From the UHGV virus genome UHGV-0140723: DNA of 12,374 bases. One strand, given 5' to 3'. Below the pieces are notes generated by a model. It was not told the origin of the DNA and ran no database searches. It worked only from the letters and a program-made list of their open reading frames with translations. This stretch comes from a virus. This document shows, one piece after another, positions 1-12,374 of the stretch (the stretch's first letter is position 1; each line of letters opens with the position of its first letter). The position numbers were made by a program, and so were the translations under genes.

Positions 1-236
1 CTTTTTTCGTTGTATTTTGTCAGAATCTCACAAGATAAAACATCATATTTTGTAACCGCTTTGCCTTTGTCGAGGTCAAAGAATCCGAACGCTTTACCGT
101 CTTTGAATCCGACAACTTCGTAAGACTCTTTAATGATTTCACCATTGAACAAATCACTCTCGATACGATGGAATAATGCTACATCCTCTTTGTCGGTTGC
201 AATTTGTAAAAGTGTGGTCAGTTCGACGTGTTCCAT
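1..236 (-). CDS. hypothetical protein, 3' end cut by window edge (78 codons visible, MEHVELTTLLQIATDKEDVALFHRIESDLF...)
   Basis: ATG at 234-236 (minus) preceded by the conserved cassette RBS (sense CCTAAACTGGAGATTCAAAATG). Frame is open to position 3 with no stop; absent from the ORF track because no stop lies in the window. Confidence 0.55.
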   Translation of the reverse strand, partial: MEHVELTTLLQIATDKEDVALFHRIESDLFNGEIIKESYEVVGFKDGKAFGFFDLDKGKAVTKYDVLSCEILTKYNEK

Positions 237-324
237 TTTGAATCTCCAGTTTAGGATTTTATTTAGTGGGGGGAGGTCATCCCCCGTTGATTGACAATTT
301 ACAGATTTTTGATTGTCTCGTCAA
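237..324 (-). promoter_or_regulatory. PeSL-like cassette, family 1 (promoter, 5'UTR hairpin, RBS)
   Basis: Sense strand: -35 TTGACG (319-324), 17-bp spacer, -10 TAAATT (296-301), hairpin GGGGGA/TCCCCC (269-285), then RBS GGAG and ATG. The -35 and -10 lie inside the 3' end and stop codon of CDS 299..829. Confidence 0.6.
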
Positions 325-829
325 TATCTTTTTCAATATCTTTTAAAGTTTTCTCTAAGTTCTTGATATTGAACGTTAAACCTTCACCGAGAGTCTTAGA
401 GTAACCGCTAGGGCGTAAATCATGCAGCTTGATTTCTTCCACATTGGATAAGTTTACCATCTCACCATTTGCAGCATAGGCTATTGATACAGTATTTTTA
501 GGTGCGTTGTAAAACTTGTTTAAGGACTTGATAGAACGTTCATAAGCCATTTTATAGCTATTTAAAAGGTTTTTAACGTGGCTGTGAACGTTTTTACACT
601 CATCTAAATAAAGACCTAAAAACATCGGGAGAAGTTCCGCGACAGCTTGCATAAAGTGAGAGACCACAACGGTTGCAACATTACGACGATGAACGTAATA
701 AGCCCCGTTTTCTGATTTGGTAATGGTTGCAAAGTGTACCCCATTACAACGAAATTCATAGGTATCTTTAACAGGCTTAGACATTACATTATTTGAACGA
801 ATATAGTTGATAGCTTTGAACTTGTTCAT
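299..829 (-). CDS. hypothetical protein (176 aa, MNKFKAINYIRSNN...)
   Basis: ATG at 827-829 sits directly behind the conserved cassette (+ strand cattttagaatctcctagtttaagg). The six-frame ORF 299..922 extends this frame upstream through the regulatory cassette from a TTG codon, which I treat as an artefact. Confidence 0.65.
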   Translation of the reverse strand: MNKFKAINYIRSNNVMSKPVKDTYEFRCNGVHFATITKSENGAYYVHRRNVATVVVSHFMQAVAELLPMFLGLYLDECKNVHSHVKNLLNSYKMAYERSIKSLNKFYNAPKNTVSIAYAANGEMVNLSNVEEIKLHDLRPSGYSKTLGEGLTFNIKNLEKTLKDIEKDIDETIKNL

Positions 830-922
830 TTTAGAATCTCCTAGTTTAAGGACTTTACTTAGTAGGGAGGTTATTGCCTCCCCGTTGATGAGTAATTTAC
901 TTGTTTTGATATCTGATTGCAA
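830..922 (-). promoter_or_regulatory. PeSL-like cassette, family 1
   Basis: Sense strand: -35 TTGCAA (917-922), 17 bp, -10 TAAATT (894-899), hairpin GGGAGG/CCTCCC (865-882), RBS AGGAGA, ATG at 829. Confidence 0.6.
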
Positions 923-990
923 GCAATTTTTTAAGTCTATCTATAAAGAATCTTTTAAGTTAATCCCTTTTAGATAAACCCCCTCGAACA

Positions 991-1019
991 AAGTTACCAA
1001 TGTCAAGAGGGATTGTCAA
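991..1019 (-). promoter_or_regulatory. additional sigma70-like promoter upstream of the 830..922 cassette
   Basis: Sense strand TTGACA (1014-1019), 17 bp, TAACTT (991-996). The segment 923..1051 has no credible ORF. The -35 region tgtcaacatctttttaaa recurs at 2724-2741. Confidence 0.4.
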
Positions 1020-1051
1020 CATCTTTTTAAAAGTTTTTTGTAAGTTATTGA

Positions 1052-1393
1052 TTAACTGATGAATATTTTTTCAGGTTTTACATAGCTGATACGCTGATTT
1101 TTTAGTAGGCTATCCCATAACAAGGCGGCAATGTGCCCATATCCGGCCTCACGCAGCCCCTTCATCGTTTCAACTCGACTCTCAAAACGATTTGCGTAAT
1201 ACTCGCTATTAAGTGTCGTTTTGTTCCCTTCGTTATCTGTATGGATGATTTGCATCACTTGAAAGGGGCTGACATCCTCGCCTTTGTTCCACTGCTCAAA
1301 GTATTTTAGGCACTGCATAGGTGACATCTTATCACTTACTTGAGTTGACCAAGATGAATCTTCTTTATCGGTAATTACAGTTACATAAGCCAT
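1052..1393 (-). CDS. hypothetical protein (113 aa)
   Basis: ATG at 1391-1393 directly behind a family-1 cassette with RBS AGGAGA; ORF from the track. Confidence 0.7.
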   Translation of the reverse strand: MAYVTVITDKEDSSWSTQVSDKMSPMQCLKYFEQWNKGEDVSPFQVMQIIHTDNEGNKTTLNSEYYANRFESRVETMKGLREAGYGHIAALLWDSLLKNQRISYVKPEKIFIS

Positions 1394-1487
1394 TTTAGAA
1401 TCTCCTAGTTTAAGGACTTTATTTAGTGGGGAAGGTCATTCCCTCCCCGTTGATTGACAATTTACAGACTTTTATCAGGCTTGTCTA
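1394..1487 (-). promoter_or_regulatory. PeSL-like cassette, family 1
   Basis: Sense strand: -35 TAGACA (1482-1487, overlapping the TAG stop of CDS 1485..1718), 17 bp, -10 TAAATT (1459-1464), hairpin GGGGAGGG/CCTTCCCC with one G.U wobble (1428-1448), RBS, ATG 1393. Confidence 0.6.
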
Positions 1488-1718
1488 GTCTTTTTCAATG
1501 ATAATTTCATATTGACCATCGACACTGTCAAAATAGACGCCGTCTTCATCTTCTGTCTTAAAGTAGCATTGAATATCATCACTGGCGGGATAGTCTTGTC
1601 TTGCTATCTGGCAAACTTGAATAGCATTTTCTTTACTCCCTGTAAACTCCTCAAGCCCTTTAAAATCACATGAATGACCATTACAAATAGAAAGGATAAG
1701 ATAAACGGTTGTAAGCAT
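1485..1718 (-). CDS. small protein with hydrophobic N-terminus and 4 Cys (77 aa); possibly exported
   Basis: ATG at 1716-1718 with RBS AAGGG about 8 nt upstream. N-terminus MLTTVYLILSICNGHSC is signal-peptide-like. No cassette upstream, only a short hairpin (1737-1751), so probably co-transcribed with 1782..2345. Confidence 0.55.
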   Translation of the reverse strand: MLTTVYLILSICNGHSCDFKGLEEFTGSKENAIQVCQIARQDYPASDDIQCYFKTEDEDGVYFDSVDGQYEIIIEKD

Positions 1719-1781
1719 GATTTAAGCCCTTTAAATGGCCCTGTATGGGCCTTAAGTTGGAAGTTGGTGTCTTTGTACTGA

Positions 1782-2345
1782 TTAACCTAAAAAGTCTTTT
1801 AAATTGCGCTCTGTGATGTTTGCCGTGATTTTATCCAGCAAGTCACAAAACACGGAACTATCACCGCTATTCTGTACAATTTTCGCCATACTTAACAAAT
1901 CATCGTCAACATAGCCTAAATTGCGGTTAGTTGCATCTGGTACAAAGAAAGGTGCATACATCGCACTAAATTTCGTCGAGTGAAGGCCAATAATCCAATT
2001 TTTATCAAAGTGTCCGGTAAAGCTGGCGATATCGCTCATGTTGTCACAAGAATAATCATCCTCTAGCTCTTCCTCTGGGATATCCATCTCAATGACAATT
2101 ACGTCCTGCGTTTCCATTTGGAAAGCTGCCGTAATAAGCCCAGATTCTAAAGCGTTTTGAATGCAGCGTTCACGAATGTAAGAATCTTCCTCATCTTCCA
2201 GACATTCCGTTTTGATAATCTTGTTCATTGGGTAAACGTAGAAACAATCATCCATGTATGAGCAGTTCCAGATTCCTTCCGGCTTGTCGCCACCATTCAG
2301 CAGGTTTACAAAGTTTTTGAGGGTAGTTCCGTGATAGCATTTCAT
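1782..2345 (-). CDS. hypothetical protein (187 aa); possible H-Y-E class ADP-ribosyltransferase-like fold (low-confidence functional call)
   Basis: ATG 2343-2345 behind a family-2 cassette. N-terminal MKCYHGTTLKNFVNLLNGG and downstream GIWNCSYMDDCFYVY resemble, from memory, the YHGT...GG and W-x-x-(F/S)-Y motifs of diphtheria toxin and exotoxin A and the DarT N-terminal motif. No search was run. Confidence 0.45.
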   Translation of the reverse strand: MKCYHGTTLKNFVNLLNGGDKPEGIWNCSYMDDCFYVYPMNKIIKTECLEDEEDSYIRERCIQNALESGLITAAFQMETQDVIVIEMDIPEEELEDDYSCDNMSDIASFTGHFDKNWIIGLHSTKFSAMYAPFFVPDATNRNLGYVDDDLLSMAKIVQNSGDSSVFCDLLDKITANITERNLKDFLG

Positions 2346-2427
2346 TTTTGAATCTCCTAGTTTAAGGATTGAGTGGTAAAGCTCTTTATCTGGGGCTTAA
2401 GTTATCAACTTTTAAGCCCCTTGTAAA
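2346..2427 (-). promoter_or_regulatory. PeSL-like cassette, family 2
   Basis: Sense strand: upstream stop TAA, then -35 CTTTACA (2422-2427), 17-bp spacer containing the 5' arm of hairpin GGGGCTTAA/TTAAGCCCC (2392-2420), -10 TAACTT (2399-2404) preceded by TG, then AGATAAAGAGCTTTACC...CTAAACTAGGAGATTCAAAAATG. Confidence 0.55.
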
Positions 2428-2432
2428 GTACT

Positions 2433-2636
2433 TTATTTGTTATTTTTGACAACTTTTAAAACTGCAAGGTAACCTAAGCAATAAGAATCACCGAAAAGAG
2501 TCCTACCCATGAAAGAATCCTCTTTGATATCCTTTGCAGTGACAGTTTTTTCTACGCCGTGGGAAAGGACTACATCACCAACTTTGATATCTTTGATGTG
2601 TGTTGTTTCAATGGTTAAGCCGTTAATAATAGCCAT
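2433..2636 (-). CDS. hypothetical protein (67 aa)
   Basis: ATG 2634-2636 behind a family-1 cassette; stop TAA at 2433-2435 is the first triplet of the next cassette. Confidence 0.6.
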   Translation of the reverse strand: MAIINGLTIETTHIKDIKVGDVVLSHGVEKTVTAKDIKEDSFMGRTLFGDSYCLGYLAVLKVVKNNK

Positions 2637-2729
2637 TTTAGAATCTCCTAGTTTAAGGACTTTATTTAGTAGGGAGGTTATTGCCTCCCCGTTGATGAGT
2701 AATTTAATCTATCTAAAAATCAGTGTCAA
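2637..2729 (-). promoter_or_regulatory. PeSL-like cassette, family 1
   Basis: Sense strand: -35 TTGACA (2724-2729), 17 bp, -10 TAAATT (2701-2706), hairpin GGGAGG/CCTCCC (2672-2689), RBS, ATG 2636. The -35 directly follows the stop of CDS 2737..3141. Confidence 0.6.
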
Positions 2730-2736
2730 CATCTTT

Positions 2737-3141
2737 TTAAAGTTCTGCGTAGATTGCATCACAGACATCACGGAAATCATGATTTGTTAAGTTACGTTGT
2801 AACCAAGTGGCAAAGAAATCAGCGATTGCAAAATTAGCGTCATACTCGACGGATAGCCACACTTTAACAGCAAATCGGAACATCTTTAAATCAAGCTCTT
2901 TATTCATTACCTTTGATTTGCCTAACATGTCGGCCATCTCATGTTGTGCACCGTCTAGCGTGATACCGGCTGCAACGTCAGCCAATGAGTTTTTTACGCT
3001 TTCAACGTCTAAGATAATACTTTGAATCTTCCCAATAATGTTTTGCAGTGTTTCATCTGGTGCTGATGATGTGATAACATTAATCCGGTTGACGGTCAAA
3101 CGTGCTTTTAAGATAGATAACTCACGATTATTAATAGCCAT
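2737..3141 (-). CDS. hypothetical protein (134 aa)
   Basis: ATG 3139-3141 behind a family-2 cassette (RBS TGGAGA); ORF from the track. Confidence 0.7.
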   Translation of the reverse strand: MAINNRELSILKARLTVNRINVITSSAPDETLQNIIGKIQSIILDVESVKNSLADVAAGITLDGAQHEMADMLGKSKVMNKELDLKMFRFAVKVWLSVEYDANFAIADFFATWLQRNLTNHDFRDVCDAIYAEL

Positions 3142-3221
3142 TTTTGAATCTCCAATTTAGGATTTAGTGGTAAAGCTCTTTATCTGGGGCTTACTTTATC
3201 GAACTATAAGCCCCTTGTAAA
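3142..3221 (-). promoter_or_regulatory. PeSL-like cassette, family 2
   Basis: -35 TTTACA (3216-3221), 17 bp, -10 TAAAGT (3193-3198), hairpin GGGGCTTA/TAAGCCCC (3186-3214) with a 13-nt loop. The central part is identical to the copy at 5239-5267. Confidence 0.55.
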
Positions 3222-3226
3222 GTACT

Positions 3227-3499
3227 TTATGCTAAATGCAGCTTTTTGCCTTTTACTATGATGTAACTTGATGCGCTATTGCCGCATACATCTTGATAAA
3301 TTCTACGCAAACGGCCTTCGTAGTATACTTTCCAGCTAGTTGGAATCTTTTTCCCGTATCCGGTAGCAGTTTTTTGGAATCCTGCAAGTTGCCAATCCAA
3401 AATGTGCTGTTCAGCTTGTAAATCCTCGAAGTGCATTACACCGTTCACATAGTGGCGTAGGGTTACGTTTAAGGTGCGACCGTTGTTAGTAGTGTACAT
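3227..3499 (-). CDS. hypothetical protein (90 aa)
   Basis: ATG 3497-3499 behind a family-1 cassette; stop TAA 3227-3229 abuts the -35 of the next cassette. Confidence 0.65.
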   Translation of the reverse strand: MYTTNNGRTLNVTLRHYVNGVMHFEDLQAEQHILDWQLAGFQKTATGYGKKIPTSWKVYYEGRLRRIYQDVCGNSASSYIIVKGKKLHLA

Positions 3500-3593
3500 T
3501 TTTGAATCTCCTAGTTTAAGGACTTTACTTAGTGGGGAAGGTCATTCCCTCCCCGTTGATTAGTAATTTACTTGTTTTTAAAACTAAAATCAA
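3500..3593 (-). promoter_or_regulatory. PeSL-like cassette, family 1
   Basis: -35 TTGATT (3588-3593, overlapping the TGA stop of CDS 3590..3922), 17 bp, -10 TAAATT (3565-3570), hairpin GGGGAGGG/CCTTCCCC (3534-3554), RBS, ATG 3499. Confidence 0.55.
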
Positions 3594-3922
3594 GAGAAAT
3601 TTTTTCGTTTGTTCAGTTCTTGGACAATTACAGTGTAATAGTCTTTTAAGTCACTGATATTTAAAGCATTTATCAGAGAGTTATAATCATCGACAAGCTG
3701 AAAATTATCTTTGAAAATGTCACTGATTTGATAAGTTTTTGATTGAAATCTGAAGCTCATTTCTAACCGTTTTATTTGTTCATCACTTAAACGCTCCAGA
3801 AAACTCATTACAAGGCTATTATTGACCTGTTGCGTGATTGCCTTACTTGCCAGATTGTAGGCGCTGTACGCCTTATATAGCGCCATAATAGCAATGATTG
3901 CAGTGATACCCATCATTAACAT
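3590..3922 (-). CDS. small membrane protein (110 aa, N-terminal transmembrane helix MLMMGITAIIAIMALY)
   Basis: ATG 3920-3922 overlaps the stop of the upstream gene (ATGTTAA, 7-nt overlap); RBS AGAGGAAG 8 nt upstream. Hydrophobic N-terminus seen directly. Confidence 0.6.
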   Translation of the reverse strand: MLMMGITAIIAIMALYKAYSAYNLASKAITQQVNNSLVMSFLERLSDEQIKRLEMSFRFQSKTYQISDIFKDNFQLVDDYNSLINALNISDLKDYYTVIVQELNKRKNFS

Positions 3923-4212
3923 AGTGCTTCCTCTTTACGTGACACTTTGCCATTTACAGTTATCTCATAAGAATCTAGTAAATCACTTTCAGACTTAACA
4001 GGACTTTTACAAGTATCATCATAAACATTAATTTGCAATACAGGCTTTTTATACTCCCTGCAACTATTCCATAAGCAAATCACTACACGACGGCCTTTTA
4101 TTTTGCCGTGTAACCATTCCATAACCTCATGAGTATTTCTTGAGGTCTCGATAAAATCAATTTTGTTGAGTAACTTGCTTAGATTTTCCCTAACTTTATT
4201 TGATAATTTCAT
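3916..4212 (-). CDS. hypothetical protein (98 aa)
   Basis: ATG 4210-4212 behind a family-2 variant cassette; translationally coupled to 3590..3922. Confidence 0.65.
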   Translation of the reverse strand: MKLSNKVRENLSKLLNKIDFIETSRNTHEVMEWLHGKIKGRRVVICLWNSCREYKKPVLQINVYDDTCKSPVKSESDLLDSYEITVNGKVSRKEEALC

Positions 4213-4292
4213 TTTTGAGTCTCCTAGTTTAAGGTTAGTTAATAAAGCTCTTTATCTGGGGCTATCTTATCAGCTTGATAACCCCGTGTAAA
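4213..4292 (-). promoter_or_regulatory. PeSL-like cassette, family 2 variant
   Basis: -35 CTTTACA (4287-4292), -10 TAAGAT (4264-4269), hairpin sense GGGGTTATC/GATAGCCCC (4258-4285). Inner stem base pairs differ from other family-2 copies by compensatory changes plus one G.U wobble. Confidence 0.55.
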
Positions 4293-4301
4293 GAGGTCTA
4301 T

Positions 4302-4814
4302 TTAGTTCTTAAAGATATTCATCACTGAATCTTTTAATGCTTCCAAGCGTTCTAATACTTCAGATTCTGCGTCTGCGTTGTTCACTTCCTCTTTTAGTCT
4401 GTTATCTAAATCATCGCCGTCACTGTAGCACCAATCGAAAGCATAACCAATATAAAAACTCTCTAAAACCGTGCTACCGTTTGCATCTACAACTTTCGCG
4501 GCGATGTTATATTCTGAAGCCTCTAAATCTCTTTCTAGTTCTTTCTGTAAGCTGATATAAGCCTCTTTTGATGGATTTTCCCGGCCTTGTTTTGCATAGT
4601 CACTCGAAAGCTGTTTCAGGCTGTAATGTAAAGGGATTGCATATTTAAATTCATTACGCTGATAAATAGGATTTTTAACAGTAACACCGCCTTGATGGTT
4701 GTCTGTAAATTCCCAATTATCAAGGTTATGGCTTGCTTCGTAGCAATTAACAGCTTCGTAAATGATGGAAAATTTTTCTTTTACAACTTCAAAGGTAGCG
4801 TCTACAGTTTTCAT
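4302..4814 (-). CDS. hypothetical protein (170 aa, acidic C-terminal half)
   Basis: ATG 4812-4814 behind a family-2 cassette; ORF from the track. Confidence 0.7.
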   Translation of the reverse strand: MKTVDATFEVVKEKFSIIYEAVNCYEASHNLDNWEFTDNHQGGVTVKNPIYQRNEFKYAIPLHYSLKQLSSDYAKQGRENPSKEAYISLQKELERDLEASEYNIAAKVVDANGSTVLESFYIGYAFDWCYSDGDDLDNRLKEEVNNADAESEVLERLEALKDSVMNIFKN

Positions 4815-4894
4815 TTTTGAATCTCCAGTTTAGGATTTAGTGGTAAAGCTCTTTATCTGGGGCTTAAGATATCAGCTTTTAAGCCCCTTGTAAA
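4815..4894 (-). promoter_or_regulatory. PeSL-like cassette, family 2
   Basis: -35 TTTACA (4889-4894), 17 bp, -10 TATCTT (4866-4871), hairpin GGGGCTTAA/TTAAGCCCC (4859-4887). Confidence 0.55.
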
Positions 4895-4902
4895 GTACTT
4901 TA

Positions 4903-5193
4903 TCAGTTAATTTTCAGCTTTGCATAACCTCTCATTGTACGAATGGGAGACGTTAAGGTTACGCGTCTGATATATGCCTTTTTAGTGTATACAGTTGTCT
5001 TCCCGATGGTGTTTACATGCGTGAAAAGGTTTATTGGTGAATTTTTTAAATTCATTTGTTTATCAGCCTTCACACCCCATCTTACAGCAGTTTGTTTTCC
5101 GTTGTCAACCACTTTTCCGCCTAACTTTTTCGCCATGATGCGAGCGTCATCACGAGTTTTTGCAGGAATTACAACGTTTTTGATAATAGCCAT
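4903..5193 (-). CDS. hypothetical basic protein (96 aa, MAIIKNVVIPAKTRDDARIMAKKLGG...)
   Basis: ATG 5191-5193 behind cassette RBS TGGAGAAC. The track ORF 4903..5208 starts at a TTG inside the RBS region and is an artefactual 5-codon extension. Confidence 0.65.
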   Translation of the reverse strand: MAIIKNVVIPAKTRDDARIMAKKLGGKVVDNGKQTAVRWGVKADKQMNLKNSPINLFTHVNTIGKTTVYTKKAYIRRVTLTSPIRTMRGYAKLKIN

Positions 5194-5274
5194 TTTTAAG
5201 TTCTCCAATTTAGGATTTAGTGGTAAAGCTCTTTATCTGGGGCTTACTTTATCGAACTATAAGCCCCTTGTAAA
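5194..5274 (-). promoter_or_regulatory. PeSL-like cassette, family 2
   Basis: -35 TTTACA (5269-5274), hairpin GGGGCTTA/TAAGCCCC (5239-5267), same loop as the 3142..3221 copy. Confidence 0.55.
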
Positions 5275-5282
5275 GTACTTTA

Positions 5283-5663
5283 TCAGTTAATTTTGAAAAT
5301 TGTCACATAGCCGTCACTGCCGATTATTTGAGACACTCCAGCTTTTTCCACTGAATAGCCCATATTTTCAAGATGATAAACAGCATCATCATAACCATAT
5401 GCGCCACCCTGATAACGTCTCTTATCGCATCTTATCAGGTTTTTACCACGTCCTGCAAGTGCATTCAGTACGGCTTTTTCACTTGATAGCGTACCATCTA
5501 ACATGGTTGCCGTGTAATGGTTGATTTTATTCCCGTTAATATCATACTTAAAATTGAATGCGTGAACAACAATCAATTTGCCGTTAAATTTTTCATCAAG
5601 TGACTTCTCCAGTGCGTTGCGGAAGTTGTCTTTGTTGATGAATTTCGGTGCACGATAAGCCAT
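5283..5663 (-). CDS. hypothetical protein (126 aa)
   Basis: ATG 5661-5663 behind a family-2 cassette. Last codons and stop (AAA ATT AAC TGA) are identical to those of CDS 4903..5193. Confidence 0.7.
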   Translation of the reverse strand: MAYRAPKFINKDNFRNALEKSLDEKFNGKLIVVHAFNFKYDINGNKINHYTATMLDGTLSSEKAVLNALAGRGKNLIRCDKRRYQGGAYGYDDAVYHLENMGYSVEKAGVSQIIGSDGYVTIFKIN

Positions 5664-5746
5664 TTTTGAATCTCCTAGTTTAAGGGTTAATTTAGTAAAG
5701 CTCTTTATCTGGGGCTTAAGATATCAGCTTTTAAGCCCCCTGTAAA
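5664..5746 (-). promoter_or_regulatory. PeSL-like cassette, family 2
   Basis: -35 TTTACA(G) (5741-5746), hairpin GGGGCTTAA/TTAAGCCCC (5711-5739), RBS AGGAGA, ATG 5663. Confidence 0.55.
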
Positions 5747-5751
5747 GTACT

Positions 5752-5958
5752 TTATTTGTCGTAGTAGTAAATCGCTGTCTGCCTTGTAAATTTCTTAGTG
5801 TTTCTTGTAAGGTAGCAATTAGAATTAATAGCCGTTTCTACATAGTTGCAATAGTCGGCTTCTGATATTCTGGACCATACGCCACAGATTTTCATGTAAA
5901 AACGTTTTACCTTTGTGTTAACGTTAGTTGTAACCATTAATTCACGATAGTAAGTCAT
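5752..5958 (-). CDS. hypothetical protein (68 aa)
   Basis: ATG 5956-5958 with RBS TGGAGAA; driven by the divergent cassette at 5959..6037. Confidence 0.6.
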   Translation of the reverse strand: MTYYRELMVTTNVNTKVKRFYMKICGVWSRISEADYCNYVETAINSNCYLTRNTKKFTRQTAIYYYDK

Positions 5959-6037
5959 TTTTGGATTCTCCAGTTTAGGAAGTGGGCTGGCTTGCCCGTC
6001 TGATGCAAATATTAAATAACCATAGTCAAAGAGTCAA
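5959..6037 (-). promoter_or_regulatory. divergent promoter + stem-loop + RBS cassette (first module of the array)
   Basis: Sense strand: -35 TTGACT (6032-6037), 17 bp, -10 TAATAT (6009-6014), short hairpin GGGC/GCCC (5984-5997), RBS TGGAGAA, ATG 5958. Same architecture as family 1, different sequence. Confidence 0.55.
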
Positions 6038-6203
6038 TAGGAATTTTAAAAATATTTTTGCAAAAAAAAAAAACTGTAATGAAACGGGTGCGCGCGATTA
6101 CCACAAAACAGAACTATAATCAAGAATTATTTTTCAATCCGCTACAAATTTTTCTGTTGACTTTTATTTTCAGATGTGGTAGCCTTGTGAGAAATGGCGA
6201 CAG

Positions 6204-6400
6204 CCCCACCTACCCCCACCTACCTGCACAATTCTAAAATGATTTTTCTTGCCCGACCTGAGCGGGGTCTGCACGTTTTGAAAATGAAAAAGCTCTTTGG
6301 AGATTACCTGCACAGTTTGAAAATGAATTTTCTCTTTGGAGTTCAAAATTTTCTCTACAGATTTCTCTACAGAACTCTACCTGCACAATTCTAAAATGAA
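6204..6400. repeat. cluster of short direct repeats in an ORF-free segment
   Basis: Four copies of CTGCAC(A/G)nTT(C/T)(T/G)AAAATGA starting at 6224, 6269, 6309 and 6382, two of them within a ~40-bp tandem unit (6268-6302 vs 6308-6342, 28/35 identical); tandem cccacctac x2 (6204-6222); tandem tttctctacag x2 (6351-6373). Confidence 0.6.
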
Positions 6401-6443
6401 AAAGCCCTCCTTACCTGAAAAATTTACCAGATAAGAAAGGCTT
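6391..6443 (-). terminator. intrinsic terminator-like long hairpin downstream of the macrodomain gene
   Basis: Sense RNA: AAGCCUUUCUUAUCUG / loop GUAAAUUUUU / CAGGUAAGGAGGGCUU gives a 16-bp stem with three G.U wobbles, followed by UUUCAUUUU. The wobbles would be C-A mismatches on the opposite strand. Confidence 0.5.
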
Positions 6444-6472
6444 AGGCTATTGTGAATATCCTACAGAGTTTC

Positions 6473-7258
6473 TTAGTTCTTTGCGTCTAAGAAGGTAACT
6501 TCTGGTGAAGAGAAGATTGCCTCGATATCCTCATCAGTTCTTGCATAGATATAAGCTTCTGCATCACTACCAAATGTTACAGCAATTCTGTGATTGCTCT
6601 TTGACAGGTGGGTAACTAGAGCGTTACTTAGAGACATCTTTTCAACCGGAGGGTTACTTTGATGTATCTTACCTTTTCTTCGTCTGAAGAGGGTAACTGC
6701 GTTATCTGTGAACACTGCTACACCTGCAAAGTATTCTGGTTCACAGTAGTTCTTCCAACCTGAGCGTAACTTGTGGTACATCTCGCCTTCATAGACATAC
6801 AGATAAACATCTACACTCTTCATCACCTGATTGATGATAACTGTGATGGCTTGAGGGTCAAGTCCACCGATACCTGCACCAATCATAGGTAAACCAACTT
6901 TCTTCAACTGATTAACTTCACAGTATCTGTTAAGCTGCTTCAAAGATGACTCTAAAGCACTGTATCGGGCATCTTTACCAGTCTTAAGCTGAGTGTAAAG
7001 GTTAGCTATACGGCCTTGTTCTAAACGTGCTACAGAGAAATTACCCAGTAAATTTTCACAGGGTTTGTGGCCTATACCACCTGCATATAGATAAACTTCT
7101 GTATCGGTCTCATATGCTTTTGGGTAAAGTTTAGAAATCTTGTCAGCGATACCTGCACCCATTAAATTCATACAGTTGCAACCGTGACCGATGATGTCAA
7201 ACTTACCTTTATCAAATGCGGCAAAGATATCACCATTGATTATTTTTACAATACCCAT
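6473..7258 (-). CDS. macrodomain protein, TARG1/OARD1/DarG-like N-terminal domain (~150 aa) plus unknown ~110-aa C-terminal domain
   Basis: 261-aa ORF; ATG 7256-7258 abuts the upstream stop (TAAATG) with RBS GGGAGAG. Motifs GDIF...GHGCNCMNLMGAGIA and LPMIGAGIGGLD match, from memory, the GDLF...HCISEDCRMGAGIA and MPRIGCGLD signature regions of human TARG1. Confidence 0.7.
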   Translation of the reverse strand: MGIVKIINGDIFAAFDKGKFDIIGHGCNCMNLMGAGIADKISKLYPKAYETDTEVYLYAGGIGHKPCENLLGNFSVARLEQGRIANLYTQLKTGKDARYSALESSLKQLNRYCEVNQLKKVGLPMIGAGIGGLDPQAITVIINQVMKSVDVYLYVYEGEMYHKLRSGWKNYCEPEYFAGVAVFTDNAVTLFRRRKGKIHQSNPPVEKMSLSNALVTHLSKSNHRIAVTFGSDAEAYIYARTDEDIEAIFSSPEVTFLDAKN

Positions 7259-9286: not shown

Positions 9287-9982
9287 TCAATGTTTAACTA
9301 ACATGGTTTTGATGTGTGGAAGGATTCTGCTCACCTTCTGCACATTCTTCTCTGTGTCTTCTATAAAACATACTATATTAAAGTAAGGCAGAATGCAAGA
9401 CTGAATCATCCTCACTTTCAAACTTTCTGCACTTATAGAGTTAGTTCCAAAACCACGCATAAAAAGCATGTAATCATGCTCTATGTAATGCCTTAAAAAC
9501 ATCTCAGTAGGGATTCTCTGAGATTCACCTCTAGCTGTCAAGAGTCCAATGGCAGCATGATTAGCAATTGCATCAATGATATTGAAAACATACGTCGGCT
9601 TTGCACTTACAGAGTCAAGCAAATTAGTGTACTGTGAAAATGACCCATCAATCAATTCCGTTGAGTAATCTTCGTGATTAAAATTTGTAAGAACACCATC
9701 AATGTCTGCTAAGATAAGGTTACCTTTTTCTACAAGGTCTTTATTGGCTATGACTAAGCTGTCACGCCTTACACCTATAGTTTGTCCAGTCTCTTTATCT
9801 ACAACATTCACAATTGGCTCTGATGTGTGAAACTCTTCAAGTGAACATATAACTTCTCTTGCAGTGTCTTCAAAATCCCTACACTGTTCTGGAGTCCATA
9901 CACAGGAATTAAGACCTAACTCATGAGGATGTAAGTCATAAGCATGACACAGTACTTCATCAGACTTTCTTAATTTTTTCAT
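9287..9982 (-). CDS. HAD-superfamily phosphatase-like protein (231 aa); resembles the 3'-phosphatase domain of T4 polynucleotide kinase/phosphatase but has no P-loop kinase domain
   Basis: HAD motif I LILADIDGVLT, motif II GLLTARGES and a C-terminal acidic motif FIEDTEKNVQKV parallel, from memory, the FDVDGTL, VVSGRES and AIDDRTQVV motifs of T4 Pnk. No GxxxxGK(S/T) anywhere. ATG 9980-9982 overlaps the upstream gene by 23 nt. Confidence 0.65.
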   Translation of the reverse strand: MKKLRKSDEVLCHAYDLHPHELGLNSCVWTPEQCRDFEDTAREVICSLEEFHTSEPIVNVVDKETGQTIGVRRDSLVIANKDLVEKGNLILADIDGVLTNFNHEDYSTELIDGSFSQYTNLLDSVSAKPTYVFNIIDAIANHAAIGLLTARGESQRIPTEMFLRHYIEHDYMLFMRGFGTNSISAESLKVRMIQSCILPYFNIVCFIEDTEKNVQKVSRILPHIKTMLVKH

Positions 9983-11718: not shown

Positions 11719-11792
11719 CTTATTACTCTCTCTTGTTAGTTAATAAATCATTTTGTGAGGATATTCTAAGGGGCTTCAAAGCCCCTTGTCAA
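11719..11792 (-). promoter_or_regulatory. rIIB promoter with hairpin in the spacer (family-2-like architecture)
   Basis: Sense strand: rIIA stop TAA, then -35 TTGACA (11787-11792), 18-bp spacer containing hairpin GGGGCTT/AAGCCCC (11770-11785), -10 TAGAAT (11763-11768). Confidence 0.55.
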
Positions 11793-11797
11793 ACACT

Positions 11798-12374
11798 TTA
11801 ATCGTAAATTGTAGTCCCTTCTGGAACACACTTCACATCAAAGCCTAAGAACTTACTCACTTCAATAGGTGACACTTTATTCCAATCTAAATGAGAAAGC
11901 AAGAAGTTTTCTTGTTTTCTTTTTGAAAGGTAGTTTGTCACCTTAATGACCATGCGGTCACCAGCTTTCTTAATTTTCTTGTACAGCTTTGTATCATTGT
12001 CAAGGCATTCTTTCAAAGTTTGCAATCTACTAACAGTGTAAGTGTATGCAAACGGTGCAGCAACGTATTGGATTTTACCGAACATTGCCTCTACAGCCTC
12101 TTCATTACCTTCTAGGAAGATAGTTTTGTTTGTATCCCGTGAATAGCAATAACCACGAGAAATCTTCCTATTATTGAATGTAAAGTTTCTGGCAATAATC
12201 CAGCTACTTGTAAGGTCAAGAACACCATTCATGTAGATGCGTGTCATATACCTGTTATGATTAATCCAATGAACATCAGTTAAGCTGTCGTTCAAGAGCT
12301 TCTCATCTACTTCAATCCAGTCTTCTGGTATCTTTTTCCAATTTGCTTTTCGGAAAACATAGACTGTCTTCCCT
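11798..12374 (-). CDS. rIIA: rIIA protein, C-terminal ~192 codons (5' end beyond window)
   Basis: Frame is open from the TAA stop at 11798-11800 to the window edge (the track ORF starts at an internal TTG). Lies immediately upstream of rIIB in the same orientation, as in T4. I did not confirm by residue-level recall. Confidence 0.65.
   Translation of the reverse strand, partial: GKTVYVFRKANWKKIPEDWIEVDEKLLNDSLTDVHWINHNRYMTRIYMNGVLDLTSSWIIARNFTFNNRKISRGYCYSRDTNKTIFLEGNEEAVEAMFGKIQYVAAPFAYTYTVSRLQTLKECLDNDTKLYKKIKKAGDRMVIKVTNYLSKRKQENFLLSHLDWNKVSPIEVSKFLGFDVKCVPEGTTIYD

Follow-up and report, generated by a model that had tools for sequence, protein, structure and literature searches.

Early-region promoter-hairpin-leader cassettes of a Felix O1-like phage form a probable PeSL-type system of module shuffling

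The closest described systems are the promoter-early stem-loop cassettes (PeSLs) of the T4-like phages RB49/phi1, T4/PST and KVP40/nt-1 (Arbiol et al. 2010, PMC2839356; Comeau et al. 2014, PMC4122927), for which promoter activity, terminator activity and mini-circles have been demonstrated experimentally (PMC2839356; PMC4122927). Lambdoid morons are likewise autonomous accessory genes with their own promoter and terminator or hairpin; they have no flanking conserved repeats, and their insertion is attributed to illegitimate recombination (PMC2839356). For Felix O1 itself, the genome paper lists direct repeats without an assigned function (Whichard et al. 2010, PMC3185647).

The window analysed here, 12,374 nt of the virus genome UHGV-0140723, is matched by 278 phage records, the best being Felixounavirus at 91–95% identity. 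It spans rIIA/rIIB through the early array and is, as judged by its sequence, the Felixounavirus early region (Felix O1-like, Ounavirinae) downstream of rIIA/rIIB. In the segment running from rIIB to the macro-domain gene, genes overlap or abut and there are no cassettes. A sequence-only reading had proposed about twelve promoter, stem-loop and ribosome-binding cassettes preceding almost every gene of the array. The 11 copies that it listed are all present to within a few bases, and a twelfth, of a third type, lies at 5956–6043. Cassettes of ~90–100 bp precede 12 of the 14 genes at 234–6043, genes F and J being the two that have none, and all lie on the minus (sense) strand (five family 1, six family 2, one third type). 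Coordinates of the family 1 and family 2 cassettes are covariance-model (CM) and HMM matches; SD denotes the Shine-Dalgarno sequence and promoter elements are predictions:

5956–6043, minus: third-type cassette, first of the array, serving gene A; -35 TTGACT 6032–6037, 17 nt, -10 TAATAT 6009–6014; short GC hairpin 5984–5997; SD GGAG 5968–5971, then the common ribosome-binding tail
5752–5958, minus: gene A, 68 aa, ATG 5956–5958
5661–5759, minus: family 2 cassette of gene B; -35 TTTACA 5741–5746, -10 TATCTT 5718–5723; two-part hairpin 5696–5754 with the upstream stop TAA 5752–5754 within its stem; SD 5672–5675
5283–5663, minus: gene B, 126 aa, ATG 5661–5663
5191–5287, minus: family 2 cassette of gene C; -35 5269–5274, -10 TAAAGT 5246–5251; hairpin 5221–5285; SD 5203–5206
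4903–5193, minus: gene C, 96 aa, ATG 5191–5193
4812–4907, minus: family 2 cassette of gene D; -35 4889–4894, -10 TATCTT 4866–4871 with TGA before it; hairpin 4841–4905 (-24.8 kcal/mol, z -4.25); SD 4823–4826
4302–4814, minus: gene D, 170 aa, ATG 4812–4814
4210–4305, minus: family 2 cassette of gene E; -35 4287–4292, -10 TAAGAT 4264–4269; hairpin 4241–4302 with a divergent stem (GGGGTTATC/GATAGCCCC); SD 4221–4224
3916–4212, minus: gene E, 98 aa, ATG 4210–4212
3590–3922, minus: gene F, 110 aa, overlapping gene E, no cassette
3497–3599, minus: family 1 cassette of the 90-aa gene; -35 TTGATT 3588–3593 containing the TGA stop of gene F, -10 TAAATT 3565–3570; 5'-UTR GC hairpin 3534–3554; SD 3508–3511
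3227–3499, minus: 90-aa gene, ATG 3497–3499
3139–3234, minus: family 2 cassette of gene H; -35 3216–3221, -10 TAAAGT 3193–3198; hairpin about 3165–3234; SD 3150–3153
2737–3141, minus: gene H, 134 aa, ATG 3139–3141
2634–2735, minus: family 1 cassette of the 67-aa gene; -35 TTGACA 2724–2729, -10 TAAATT 2701–2706; hairpin 2671–2690; SD 2645–2648
2433–2636, minus: 67-aa gene, ATG 2634–2636
2343–2440, minus: family 2 cassette of gene I; -35 2422–2427, -10 TAACTT 2399–2404; stop TAA 2433–2435; hairpin 2377–2435; SD 2354–2357
1782–2345, minus: gene I, 187 aa, ATG 2343–2345
1485–1718, minus: gene J, 77 aa, after gene I, no cassette
1391–1493, minus: family 1 cassette of gene K; -35 TAGACA 1482–1487 containing the TAG stop of gene J, -10 1459–1464; hairpin 1428–1448; SD 1402–1405
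1052–1393, minus: gene K, 113 aa, ATG 1391–1393
929–1051, minus: spacer of ~125 nt downstream of gene K, no cassette
827–928, minus: family 1 cassette of the 176-aa gene; -35 TTGCAA 917–922, -10 894–899; hairpin 864–883; SD 838–841
299–829, minus: 176-aa gene, ATG 827–829
234–330, minus: family 1 cassette of the partial gene; -35 TTGACG 319–324, -10 TAAATT 296–301, in which TAA is also the 176-aa gene's stop; hairpin 269–285; SD 244–247
ATG 234–236, minus: partial gene running off the window end, an orthologue of gene O (87 aa) in relatives

The 23-nt tail motif of the repeats occurs 7 times at up to 3 mismatches against 0.00 expected, which excludes a chance origin; a repeat search of the window gave families of 4–9 copies. 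The genes between the cassettes are, as had been supposed, small unknowns: no Pfam domain was found in any of the 13 complete array proteins (299–5958), and all 10 array proteins scanned against PHROGs fall in families of unknown function.

To examine the promoter elements we compared ~70 distinct copies per family. Of the 68 distinct copies compared for family 2, 66 have TTTACA as their -35, and the hexamer exactly 17 nt past it is TAnnnT in about 64, with 12 different hexamers represented. In family 1 the -10 TAAATT is kept, while the -35 at 17 nt is TTGCAA, TTGACA, TTGACG, TAGACA or TTGATT. These -35 hexamers come from the unrelated (non-homologous) 3' ends of the upstream genes, whose stop codons fall within the -35 or the -10. 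The family 1 copies described earlier as ~90-bp repeats are real, but the repeat begins near the -10 and the -35 lies outside it. In both families the elements and their spacing are conserved while the bases around them vary. The promoter geometry was as previously described. A simple promoter scan flagged 9 of the 12 cassette promoters, and the 25 nt upstream of the -35 are 68–84% AT compared with 62% window-wide. Taken together, these data support predicted sigma-70 promoters in the cassettes. By RT-PCR in Felix O1, ORFs 16, 20, 21 and 22 of the 14–23 array peak at 5 min and ORFs 14, 17, 19 and 23 at 25 min, a mixed timing, and the same study states that secondary promoters and temporal control are unknown (PMC3185647). 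In the literature searched, neither transcript 5' ends nor reporter data turned up for Felix O1-like phages.

The family 2 hairpin does lie in the promoter spacer, as had been noted, but is larger than claimed: to the 9-bp GC inner helix is added an 11-bp outer helix in which TAAAGTACTTTA pairs with TAAAGAGCTTTA downstream. TAAAGTACTTTA holds or abuts the upstream stop codon and overlaps the -35. Family 2 copies fold at -24 to -26 kcal/mol (z -3.9 to -5.1); 97.9% of stem cells are paired and 6 pairs carry compensatory changes, compared with only 33–55% pairing in slid controls. In eight distinct family 2 sequences an outer-helix G-C has become U-A, which breaks the palindrome of each box and keeps the pairing between boxes. 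The family 1 helix is 97% paired, with compensatory changes in 4 of 7 pairs. These compensatory changes support the hairpins. No hairpin of the array is followed by a U-tract, a difference from PeSLs, and the obvious terminators of this phage have one, which makes a PeSL-like terminator role doubtful.

As the sequence-only reading had suggested, the search was extended to related genomes. In a complete 90-kb relative genome all 13 copies fall in one ~6.5-kb array, with none elsewhere; across relatives the cassettes are present throughout, so the promoter reading is not weakened by their absence elsewhere in the genome, which the sequence-only reading had listed as a refuting outcome. Family 2 occurs in 288 phage-database records and family 1 in 246, all Ounavirinae save three named for Staphylococcus or Campylobacter; Staphylococcus phage SA1, the only one of the three examined, looks mislabelled. 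Exact matches in IMG/VR are confined to Felix O1-sized contigs.

The parallel drawn earlier with the PeSLs of T4-like phages holds for anatomy, which matches the published definition (PMC2839356) and is accompanied by covarying stems: an AT-rich upstream region, sigma-70-like -35 and -10, a GGGG...CCCC stem-loop in the spacer, over the -10 or just past it, and a 3' end formed by a Shine-Dalgarno sequence and the start codon. Both kinds of cassette cluster among small orphan genes and show cassette-bounded indels between close relatives that leave one chimeric cassette at the junction. It does not extend to sequence: the phage is an ounavirus (~87 kb), and phage database searches detected no sequence homology between the cassettes and T4-like phages. 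Further differences are that PeSLs occupy several hyperplastic regions rather than one 6.5-kb array, that only two or three tightly conserved sequence families occur here, with the whole leader conserved, and that in family 2 the stem forms a two-part hairpin of ~20 bp that engulfs promoter and stop codon. Promoter activity is demonstrated for PeSLs and predicted for the present cassettes. Two of the Felix O1 direct repeats correspond to parts of these cassettes: the family 2 core is the 57-bp repeat CTTTACATGGGGCTTAAAAGTCTGTAAAGTAAGCCCCAGATAAAGAGCTTTACCACT, which lies between genes 15/16 and 19/20, and the promoter part of family 1 is the 39-bp repeat TTGACACTGG...TTAAATTACACATCAAC, which lies between genes 18/19 and 20/21 (PMC3185647).

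We next turn to gene content, for which a module map of 15 related phages was drawn. Most differences are units of gene plus cassette (in map notation A<2>, B<2>C<2>, 67aa<2>, U<2>, 67aa<2>IJ<1>, 176aa<1> and O<1>), and the cassettes at the junctions combine two parental cassettes without a scar, in keeping with the earlier proposal that cassettes organise a plastic region. At the A|D junction of Felix O1, the 5' flank is that of the window's A|B cassette and the 3' flank that of its C|D cassette; the crossover falls within the shared core. The 3' half of the cassette at 4812–4907 matches that junction. The first cassette of AYO145A and bumzen fuses a third-type promoter half to a family 1 hairpin and leader, and precedes gene B, which has a family 2 cassette in the window. 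Identical hairpin-loop variants are found at different positions in different phages, and the closest relative varies module by module; gene I has two alleles, only 64–67% identical, and the switch between them occurs at its cassette. Crossovers map to the core, the tail and the interval between promoter and hairpin. By sequence comparison, then, genes have been gained, lost and exchanged at cassettes among related phages. The ends of long identical tracts shared with relatives lie near cassettes in 7 of 18 cases against about 24% expected, so ordinary homologous exchange is not clearly focused on them. Cassettes are also more alike to their positional counterparts in other phages (identity 0.90 and 0.86) than to others in the same phage (0.85 and 0.77), which suggests that ectopic exchange is occasional rather than rampant. 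A whole-gene indel has to end in intergenic DNA, which here is almost all cassette, so indels bounded by cassettes are not in themselves proof that recombination is driven by them.

We consider it likely that the array consists of PeSL-type composite cassettes that mediate module shuffling in a Felix O1-like early region. Every cassette occupies the interval between two small genes and would supply a promoter for the host sigma-70 RNA polymerase, so that each gene may be transcribed separately soon after infection. It would also supply a stable GC-rich hairpin. In family 2 this spans the promoter and would form only in read-through RNA from the upstream gene, where it may mark the 3' end of that gene, protect it or process it, and may damp read-through; in family 1 and the third type it lies ~3 nt past the predicted start site and could therefore also act as a 5'-terminal stabiliser of the downstream mRNA. 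The near-invariant unstructured leader (GGAG, 7–9 A/U-rich nt, ATG) would give uniformly strong translation. Because ~95 bp recur nearly identically in a dozen copies and one orientation, homologous recombination from cassette to cassette, either inside a single genome or among relatives infecting the same cell, could delete, insert, replace or re-couple gene-plus-cassette units with expression signals intact. If so, the region is a plug-and-play store of accessory genes, and a PeSL-type system exists in a new phage lineage, such cassettes having been described before only for T4-like phages.

It is possible, though somewhat unlikely, that the conserved parts are mainly a target of post-transcriptional control: the family 2 hairpin would be an RNase III-type site cutting read-through RNA into monocistronic mRNAs, as happens in the early region of T7, and GGAG with its A-rich tail a target of a RegB-like nuclease or RegA-like repressor in joint shut-off of early genes. 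The ~20-bp two-part stem with internal loops and no U-tract would fit, as would the tail, which is the only segment common to all three cassette types and in which GGAGATTCAAAA matches 5 of 7 positions after GGAG of the T4 RegB consensus GGAGRAYARAA (PMC3014915); the phage also encodes a polynucleotide kinase, an enzyme that cooperates with RegB in T4. However, there is no RegB family match among the 10 upstream window proteins and 13 array proteins and no Rfam match, and the conserved -35/-10 geometry is left unexplained. Such control could hold beside the PeSL-type reading rather than replace it. We regard as unlikely a purely regulatory role, in which the cassettes are true promoter, hairpin and RBS units that selection for a single expression programme keeps alike, indels from general or illegitimate recombination are filtered to intergenic positions, and the cassettes have no special role in plasticity. 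The lack of a clear enrichment of tract ends at cassettes, the mostly positional orthology and the near-absence of other intergenic DNA, which obliges viable indels to end in cassettes, all accord with it. It is harder to reconcile with exact, scar-free chimeras crossing over in a shared core, with one gene bearing different cassette types across phages and loop variants moving between positions, or with 75–85% between-position identity over ~95 nt that covers spacer positions without obvious function; the adjoining rIIB-to-macro-domain segment also seems less variable in gene content (judged by eye from annotation tables).

That the hairpin repeats are sites of a dedicated recombination system, an active gene-capture device using integron attC-like folded sites or a structure-specific nuclease or recombinase, appears very improbable. 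An imperfect ~60-nt inverted repeat does lie directly past each ORF in a single orientation, gene-plus-repeat units come and go, and the PeSL authors raised the same idea (PMC2839356), but annotation of the array and flanking window shows neither an integrase nor a recombinase, crossovers are spread rather than fixed at one point, and family 1 cassettes, with only a short hairpin, shuffle equally well. Selfish miniature mobile elements (MITE- or REP-like) spreading through intergenic regions would likewise be short, multicopy and intergenic with an inverted repeat. The copies here, however, share one orientation and extend exactly from stop codon to ATG, start-codon context included, and they lack terminal inverted repeats and target duplications; with none elsewhere in the 90-kb genome and none outside Ounavirinae, their distribution effectively refutes this origin.

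The early region of T7 has three sigma-70 promoters and RNase III hairpins between its early genes. As is predicted here, host RNA polymerase transcribes early accessory genes that are split by irregular ~20-bp intergenic hairpins without U-tracts, but in T7 the promoters stand only at the operon start and the hairpins are not repeats of one another, whereas here each gene has its own predicted promoter in a repeated cassette. With integrons the array shares a one-directional run of small genes, an imperfect hairpin-forming repeat after each, and gain and loss of gene-plus-repeat units; the lack of an integrase, the predicted promoter in every cassette and crossovers spread along the repeat make this an analogy only.

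Finally, the spacer at 929–1051 holds an orphan copy (1014–1033) of the 20-nt flank and -35 found at 2724–2743. This copy is probably a relic of recombination, and possibly an extra promoter (TTGACA, 17 nt, TAACTT).

The genes of the window all lie on the minus strand, and megablast against 50,697 phage records yielded 278 matching records, with Felixounavirus genomes (Felix O1-like, Ounavirinae) as the top matches at 91–95% identity. In sense order, and in window positions, the region is laid out as follows.

First in sense order, minus strand: the end of rIIA, then rIIB
Sense-downstream of rIIB, minus strand: operon-like block of overlapping genes for a transglycosylase-like protein, a polynucleotide kinase, a spanin and a macro-domain protein
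9287–9982: polynucleotide kinase gene
6473–7258, minus strand: macro-domain protein gene
6402–6443: strong terminator between the macro-domain gene and the array
Between this terminator and the array: non-coding stretch of ~360 bp
6043 down to 1, minus strand: cassette array
5956–6043, minus strand: third-type cassette heading the array

An earlier, sequence-only reading of this DNA had proposed that about 12 cassettes, each combining a promoter, a stem-loop and a ribosome-binding site, precede the small genes of the array. A repeat search of the window recovered multi-copy repeat families at the same places, the 23-nt tail motif was found in 7 copies at ≤3 mismatches versus 0.00 expected, and covariance models built from the window copies recovered five family 1 and six family 2 cassettes, a few bases off the coordinates first proposed. 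With the third type added, a cassette is present before 12 of the 14 array genes, confirming the observation; the gene at 3590–3922 overlaps its upstream neighbour, and that at 1485–1718 has a short private spacer instead. The array runs on beyond the left end of the window, and in relatives it is closed by a canonical terminator.

All 12 cassettes end in ATG and keep a –35/–10 spacing of 17 nt, and the sole segment common to the three types is the tail CCTAAACT(A)GGAGATTC(A/T)AAAATG. A family 2 cassette occupies the entire gap between two genes, with the upstream stop at its start or inside it (TAA inside ATAAAGTAC, or TGA just before ATAAAGTAC). This is followed by the –35 element TTTACA, a 17-nt spacer that opens the GC stem GGGGCTTAA, a –10 element (TAnnnT) lying in the loop and 3′ arm, TTAAGCCCC and AGATAAAGAGCTTTAC, and finally a leader of ~25 nt, GGAG, 8–9 nt and the ATG. 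RNAalifold and single-sequence folding predict a hairpin composed of a 9-bp GC helix and an 11-bp helix pairing TAAAGTACTTTA with TAAAGAGCTTTA (–24 to –26 kcal/mol, z –3.9 to –5.1). TTTACA after the stop, a hairpin in the spacer and a –10 over its 3′ arm stand as first described, while the hairpin is larger than had been thought, owing to the additional 11-bp helix. The promoter geometry of family 1 is also as first described: a –35 element, 17 nt, TAAATT and, 10 nt further on, the helix GGGGAGG(G)...CCTCCC(C), followed by ACTAAATAAAGTCCTTAAACTAGGAGATTCTAAAATG. The repeat itself begins only near the –10; the –35 hexamers (TTGACA, TTGACG, TAGACA, TTGATT and TTGCAA) belong to sequences unrelated to one another, mostly the 3′ ends of the preceding genes, and in three of the five copies the upstream stop codon falls within the –35 or –10. 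The GGGG...CCCC stems differ in placement: family 2 has them in the spacer and over the –10, family 1 and the third type 10 nt downstream of the –10. Fold z-scores range from –2.6 to –5.1 (–1.9 for the third-type cassette). The 51-nt leader of family 2 has a fold of just –3.7 kcal/mol (z –0.4).

Conservation of these elements was assessed by aligning 78 copies of family 2 and 76 of family 1, taken from the arrays of 15 relatives that represent four genera. Of the 68 distinct family 2 copies, 66 have TTTACA as their –35, and in about 64 the hexamer exactly 17 nt below it reads TAnnnT, despite taking 12 different forms (including TAAAGT, TATCTT, TAAGAT, TAGTAT, TATGAT and TAACTT). The family 2 loop therefore drifts while the three critical –10 positions stay. 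In family 1 it is five non-homologous –35 hexamers that are each held 17 nt from TAAATT. AT content is 68–84% in the 25 nt preceding the –35, compared to 62% for the window. A consensus promoter scan flags nine of the 12 cassettes, and promoter-like sites across the window number 47 versus 34 ± 6, a total that is not unusual; the comparative evidence for cassette promoters is much stronger than this simple scan. Taken together, the sequence features indicate that the cassettes carry sigma-70-like –35 and –10 elements with an AT-rich upstream region. The Felix O1 genome paper describes secondary promoters and temporal control as unknown. Its semi-quantitative RT-PCR, in which the array corresponds to genes 14–23, is the sole experimental evidence and bears on early activity indirectly: transcripts of ORFs 16, 20, 21 and 22 are highest at 5 min, those of ORFs 14, 17, 19 and 23 at 25 min (PMC3185647). 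A search of the literature found no TSS maps or transcriptomes of Felix O1-like phages.

The hairpins are supported by covariation. In family 2, 97.9% of alignment cells are paired, six of the 20 pairs (four of the nine in the inner helix) show compensatory changes, and 54 cells are changed on both sides versus 11.9 ± 2.6 in shuffles; slid-partner controls give 33–55% paired. The family 1 GC helix is paired in 97% of cells, with compensatory change in four of seven pairs. In Erwinia phage copies the stem sequence differs (GGTGTTTAG/CTAAGCACC) but the structure is retained. Since TAAAGTACTTTA and TAAAGAGCTTTA are each a near-palindrome, we considered that they could instead be two operators of a dimeric repressor. 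However, in eight distinct copies an inter-box G-C has become U-A while the symmetry of the boxes is broken, as in TAGATTTCTTTA with TAAAGAGATTTA; because these copies keep the pairing between the boxes and lose the palindromes, we favour one long hairpin and reject the operators. The hairpins also do not resemble Rho-independent terminators in sequence: none is followed by a U-tract (the post-stem sequences are CCACTAAATCC and ACTAAATAAAG), a terminator scan picks up none of them, and the evident terminators of the phage all carry a U-tract. A covariance search of Rfam 15 assigned no family, with three sub-threshold chance matches, all outside the array.

The cassettes have a narrow phylogenetic range. 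BLASTN with family 2 matched 288 records at 1,380 places and with family 1 246 records at 1,327 places, the genera concerned being Felixounavirus, Mooglevirus and Suspvirus. Family 2 also matched Erwinia Kolesnikvirus, though more weakly; in IMG/VR, matches to the exact 20-nt core are confined to Felix O1-sized contigs. Three matching records bear Staphylococcus or Campylobacter names. Staphylococcus phage SA1 (GU169904.1, 147 kb), the one of these examined, shares 10 kb with the region at 91.8% identity, including rIIA and rIIB, and is probably a mislabelled, chimeric or contaminated deposit. The expectation that the cassettes would recur across the genome and its relatives was borne out for the relatives, but the complete 90-kb genome of Salmonella phage SeKF_63 has a single array, with six family 2 and seven family 1 copies in one 6.5-kb stretch and no copy detected elsewhere by the covariance models. 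Neither family gave a BLASTN match to T4-like phages, a comparison that the sequence-only reading had suggested as a check.

Next, we called genes and cassettes in all the arrays and clustered the proteins, producing a module map of the 15 relatives. Breakpoints were placed with this map and hand-checked junction alignments, as automated BLAST chaining was confused by the repeats and missed known indels. Naming the array genes by letter or protein length, with 1 and 2 for a cassette of either family, P3 for the third type and brackets for modules that some phages lack, the pan-order reads P3, (N), A, 2, B, 2, C, 2, D, 2, E-F, 1, 90aa, 2, H, 1, 67aa, 2, (U, 2), I-J, 1, K, 1, 176aa, 1, (O, 1), M. 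Within about 6 kb, at least eight indel events separate the relatives, and the phages differ from one another by whole units of gene plus cassette.

Gene A with a family 2 cassette: absent in five phages
Genes B and C, each with a family 2 cassette: absent in Felix O1 and Moogle
67aa gene with a family 2 cassette: absent in Moogle
Gene U with a family 2 cassette: additional in LMP33
67aa gene with a family 2 cassette and genes I-J with a family 1 cassette: absent in Felix O1
176aa gene with a family 1 cassette: absent in ph2-2 and SLAM_phiST56
Gene O with a family 1 cassette: carried by six phages

Three more events (N, W and Y) have one cassette boundary or none. Because whole-gene indels must end in intergenic DNA, the structure of the junctions is more telling than the ends of the indels. 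The Felix O1 cassette between genes A and D matches the window cassette between A and B on its 5′ side and that between C and D on its 3′ side, with a scar-free switch point inside the shared core. In AYO145A and bumzen the first cassette joins the third-type promoter to a family 1 hairpin and leader ahead of gene B, which in the window is served by family 2. The cassette family of genes I, K and M differs between genera, and the same hairpin-loop variants appear at differing positions across phages: Felix O1 has one variant both between A and D and upstream of H, and Moogle has one both between D and E and upstream of H. The closest relative also changes from module to module, being SeKF_63 for A and B, KEP2 for D, SUT_S720 (at 100%) for H and J, and AYO145A for 67aa and 176aa.

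Gene I (187 aa, 1782–2345) exists as two alleles in the genus, with about 90–96% identity to the window in AYO145A, KEP2, SUT_S720 and bumzen versus 64–67% in SeKF_63, DaR-2019b, LMP33, ph2-2, SLAM_phiST56 and humlepung; identity drops from exactly its upstream cassette to the 3′ end of the gene, which could reflect diversifying selection or allelic replacement. Among identical tracts of ≥180 nt, seven of 18 ends lie near cassettes versus about 24% expected, and cassettes within one genome show an identity excess of only 1–2 points; individual loop-variant swaps are clear, though strong concerted evolution is not seen. The lack of a clear enrichment of tract ends and the slight homogenisation therefore point to ordinary homologous exchange everywhere in the region, with the cassettes mattering mainly for the joining of non-homologous modules.

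From this anatomy, conservation, covariation and junction structure we infer how the array might work. Each cassette would equip its gene with a promoter of the host type and with a leader that is uniform and unstructured. For family 2, transcription is predicted to start within the 3′ arm of the inner helix, and therefore the hairpin would be present only in RNA coming from upstream, where it may close the upstream message by attenuating transcription, by protecting the 3′ end or by serving as a T7-like RNase III site. The hairpin of family 1 and of the third type would start about 3 nt past the predicted start, which is the geometry of a 5′-terminal stabiliser; 5′-terminal hairpins are established mRNA stabilisers from work on E. 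coli mRNA decay. The co-oriented repeated homology would allow general recombination to delete, insert and swap modules while every gene's signals keep working. It is also conceivable, though in our estimation improbable, that the cassettes do more than provide homology and that a phage factor recognises the ~20-bp two-part hairpin and GGAG leader, either as a structure-specific recombinase or nuclease that excises and captures gene-cassette circles or as an RNA-binding or RNA-cleaving off-switch of the array. If this were so, the former version would amount to an integrase-less, phage-borne counterpart of the integron, and on either version the repeat block at 6037–6472 would be part of the same control or mobilisation unit.

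The array had been likened to the promoter-early stem-loop (PeSL) cassettes of T4-like phages, and this likeness holds for anatomy and behaviour, which agree point by point with the published definition (PMC2839356, PMC4122927), although the phage itself is a Felixounavirus and not T4-like. As in PeSLs, the stem-loop has no fixed place with respect to the –35 and –10, the cassettes are concentrated in a plastic region rich in small orphan genes, and indels and replacements are cassette-bounded with one chimeric cassette per junction. Unlike PeSLs, which occupy several hyperplastic regions of T4-like genomes, these cassettes form a single array, are of independent sequence origin, fall into only two or three families tightly conserved through the entire leader, include a two-part hairpin that engulfs the promoter, and have no U-tract after their hairpins. 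The T4-like host and dispersed regions are where PeSLs were found and no mechanistic requirement. PeSLs are further characterised by mini-circles arising when adjacent cassettes recombine and by a stem-loop that terminates or attenuates transcription, both of them candidate properties of the present array. Eight papers in the searchable literature mention PeSLs; judging by titles and abstracts, they are analysed in T4-like phages only, with none on a Felix O1-like phage. The Felix O1 genome paper prints the family 2 core (57 bp) and the promoter part of family 1 (39 bp) as 'direct repeats', without attributing a function to them (PMC3185647), and later comparative papers on Felixounavirus are silent on them. 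The mechanism is known but little studied, and the array is an instance of it that had gone uninterpreted, in a phage group of medical and diagnostic relevance.

Felix O1-like phages are the classic diagnostic phages of Salmonella and are also used in biocontrol and therapy. Our analysis provides a map of about a dozen candidate early promoters per genome and accounts for repeats that had been listed without comment. It indicates that the shuffling of accessory genes by cassettes, documented so far only in T4-likes, recurs in an unrelated myovirus lineage, and this recurrence with unrelated cassette sequences suggests that virulent phages have converged on a general way of keeping early genes in a swappable store. 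For phage engineering, the cassettes may offer safe insertion points with built-in expression signals, and they predict the places at which therapeutic Felix O1-like phages will vary in the genes they carry.

The genes between the cassettes are the small unknowns they had been taken for: no Pfam domain was detected in the 13 complete array proteins, and the ten scanned against PHROGs all fall into families of unknown function. The same ten gave no defence-related match in PADLOC beyond one chance-level hit, and an anti-defence role is a guess. The 90-, 67- and 176-aa proteins, initially clustered as a paralogous family 'G', have no significant mutual similarity, the cluster being a single-linkage artefact. 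In the Felixounavirus Bas63, a knockout screen describes small hypothetical genes that are interspersed and vary in essentiality, at roughly 66–80 kb in Bas63's own coordinates, a stretch that may or may not include the counterpart of the array (PMC11482910).

Several further features were observed. All 12 cassettes are predicted to form a weak 3–4-bp stem between (T)CC(T) and the Shine-Dalgarno (A)GG(A) across a 6-nt loop (TCCTTAAACTAGGA; for example at 4823–4835 and 1402–1416), with one compensatory change, and this stem might modulate translation. In the tail GGAGATTCAAAA (for example 4812–4826), five of the seven positions after GGAG agree with GGAGRAYARAA, the consensus site of the T4 endoribonuclease RegB, whose partner in T4 is polynucleotide kinase (PMC3014915). 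The present phage likewise encodes a polynucleotide kinase, but a Pfam search of window proteins turned up no RegB homologue. The rIIB promoter (11763–11810, minus strand, between rIIA and rIIB) has a cassette-like compact layout, running from the stop TAA through AGTGT, TTGACA and the spacer hairpin GGGGCTTTGAAGCCCC to TAGAAT (promoter 11763–11792); by repeat search and covariance models it belongs to neither family.

The interval from the terminator to the first promoter, within 6037–6472, contains four direct copies of TCATTTTnnAAnnGTGCAG(GTA) and two compositionally biased tracts.

About 6224–6243, 6269–6290, 6308–6328 and 6381–6400, sense strand: copies of TCATTTTnnAAnnGTGCAG(GTA)
6203–6225: C-rich tract
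6056–6075: T12/AT-rich run

A complete 90-kb relative genome carries four copies of the motif, all in this block, versus 0.3 by chance. Felix O1, Moogle and EcSzw_1 conserve the motif, and Erwinia phiEa104 has an altered version of it. The block resembles iterons and could serve as an origin or for the binding of a regulator; GC skew, examined as a test for a replication origin, shows no change at 6037–6472. Downstream of the array terminator in relatives, between convergent transcription units and about 1.0–1.5 kb past the left end of the window, lies ~1.5 kb of non-coding DNA with GGAAAGGGAAAGGG-type and ATAGAGC repeats. Because the SeKF_63 record stops about 1 kb past the array, the physical genome terminus may lie in this non-coding region.

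Within the array, the cassette-free spacer at 1719–1781, between the 187-aa and 77-aa genes, has its own hairpin (GGCCCATACAGGGCC), and the 12-nt motif AAGCCCTTTAAA occurs twice, at 1653 and 1724. Finally, the 20-nt sequence (A)CTTT(T)AAAAAGATGTTGACA occurs at both 2724–2743, where it forms the 3′ end of the 134-aa gene and the –35 of a family 1 cassette, and 1014–1033, where it is orphaned in a ~125-nt spacer downstream of gene K. The orphan copy was probably left behind by recombination, or else it acts as an additional promoter (TTGACA, 17 nt, TAACTT).
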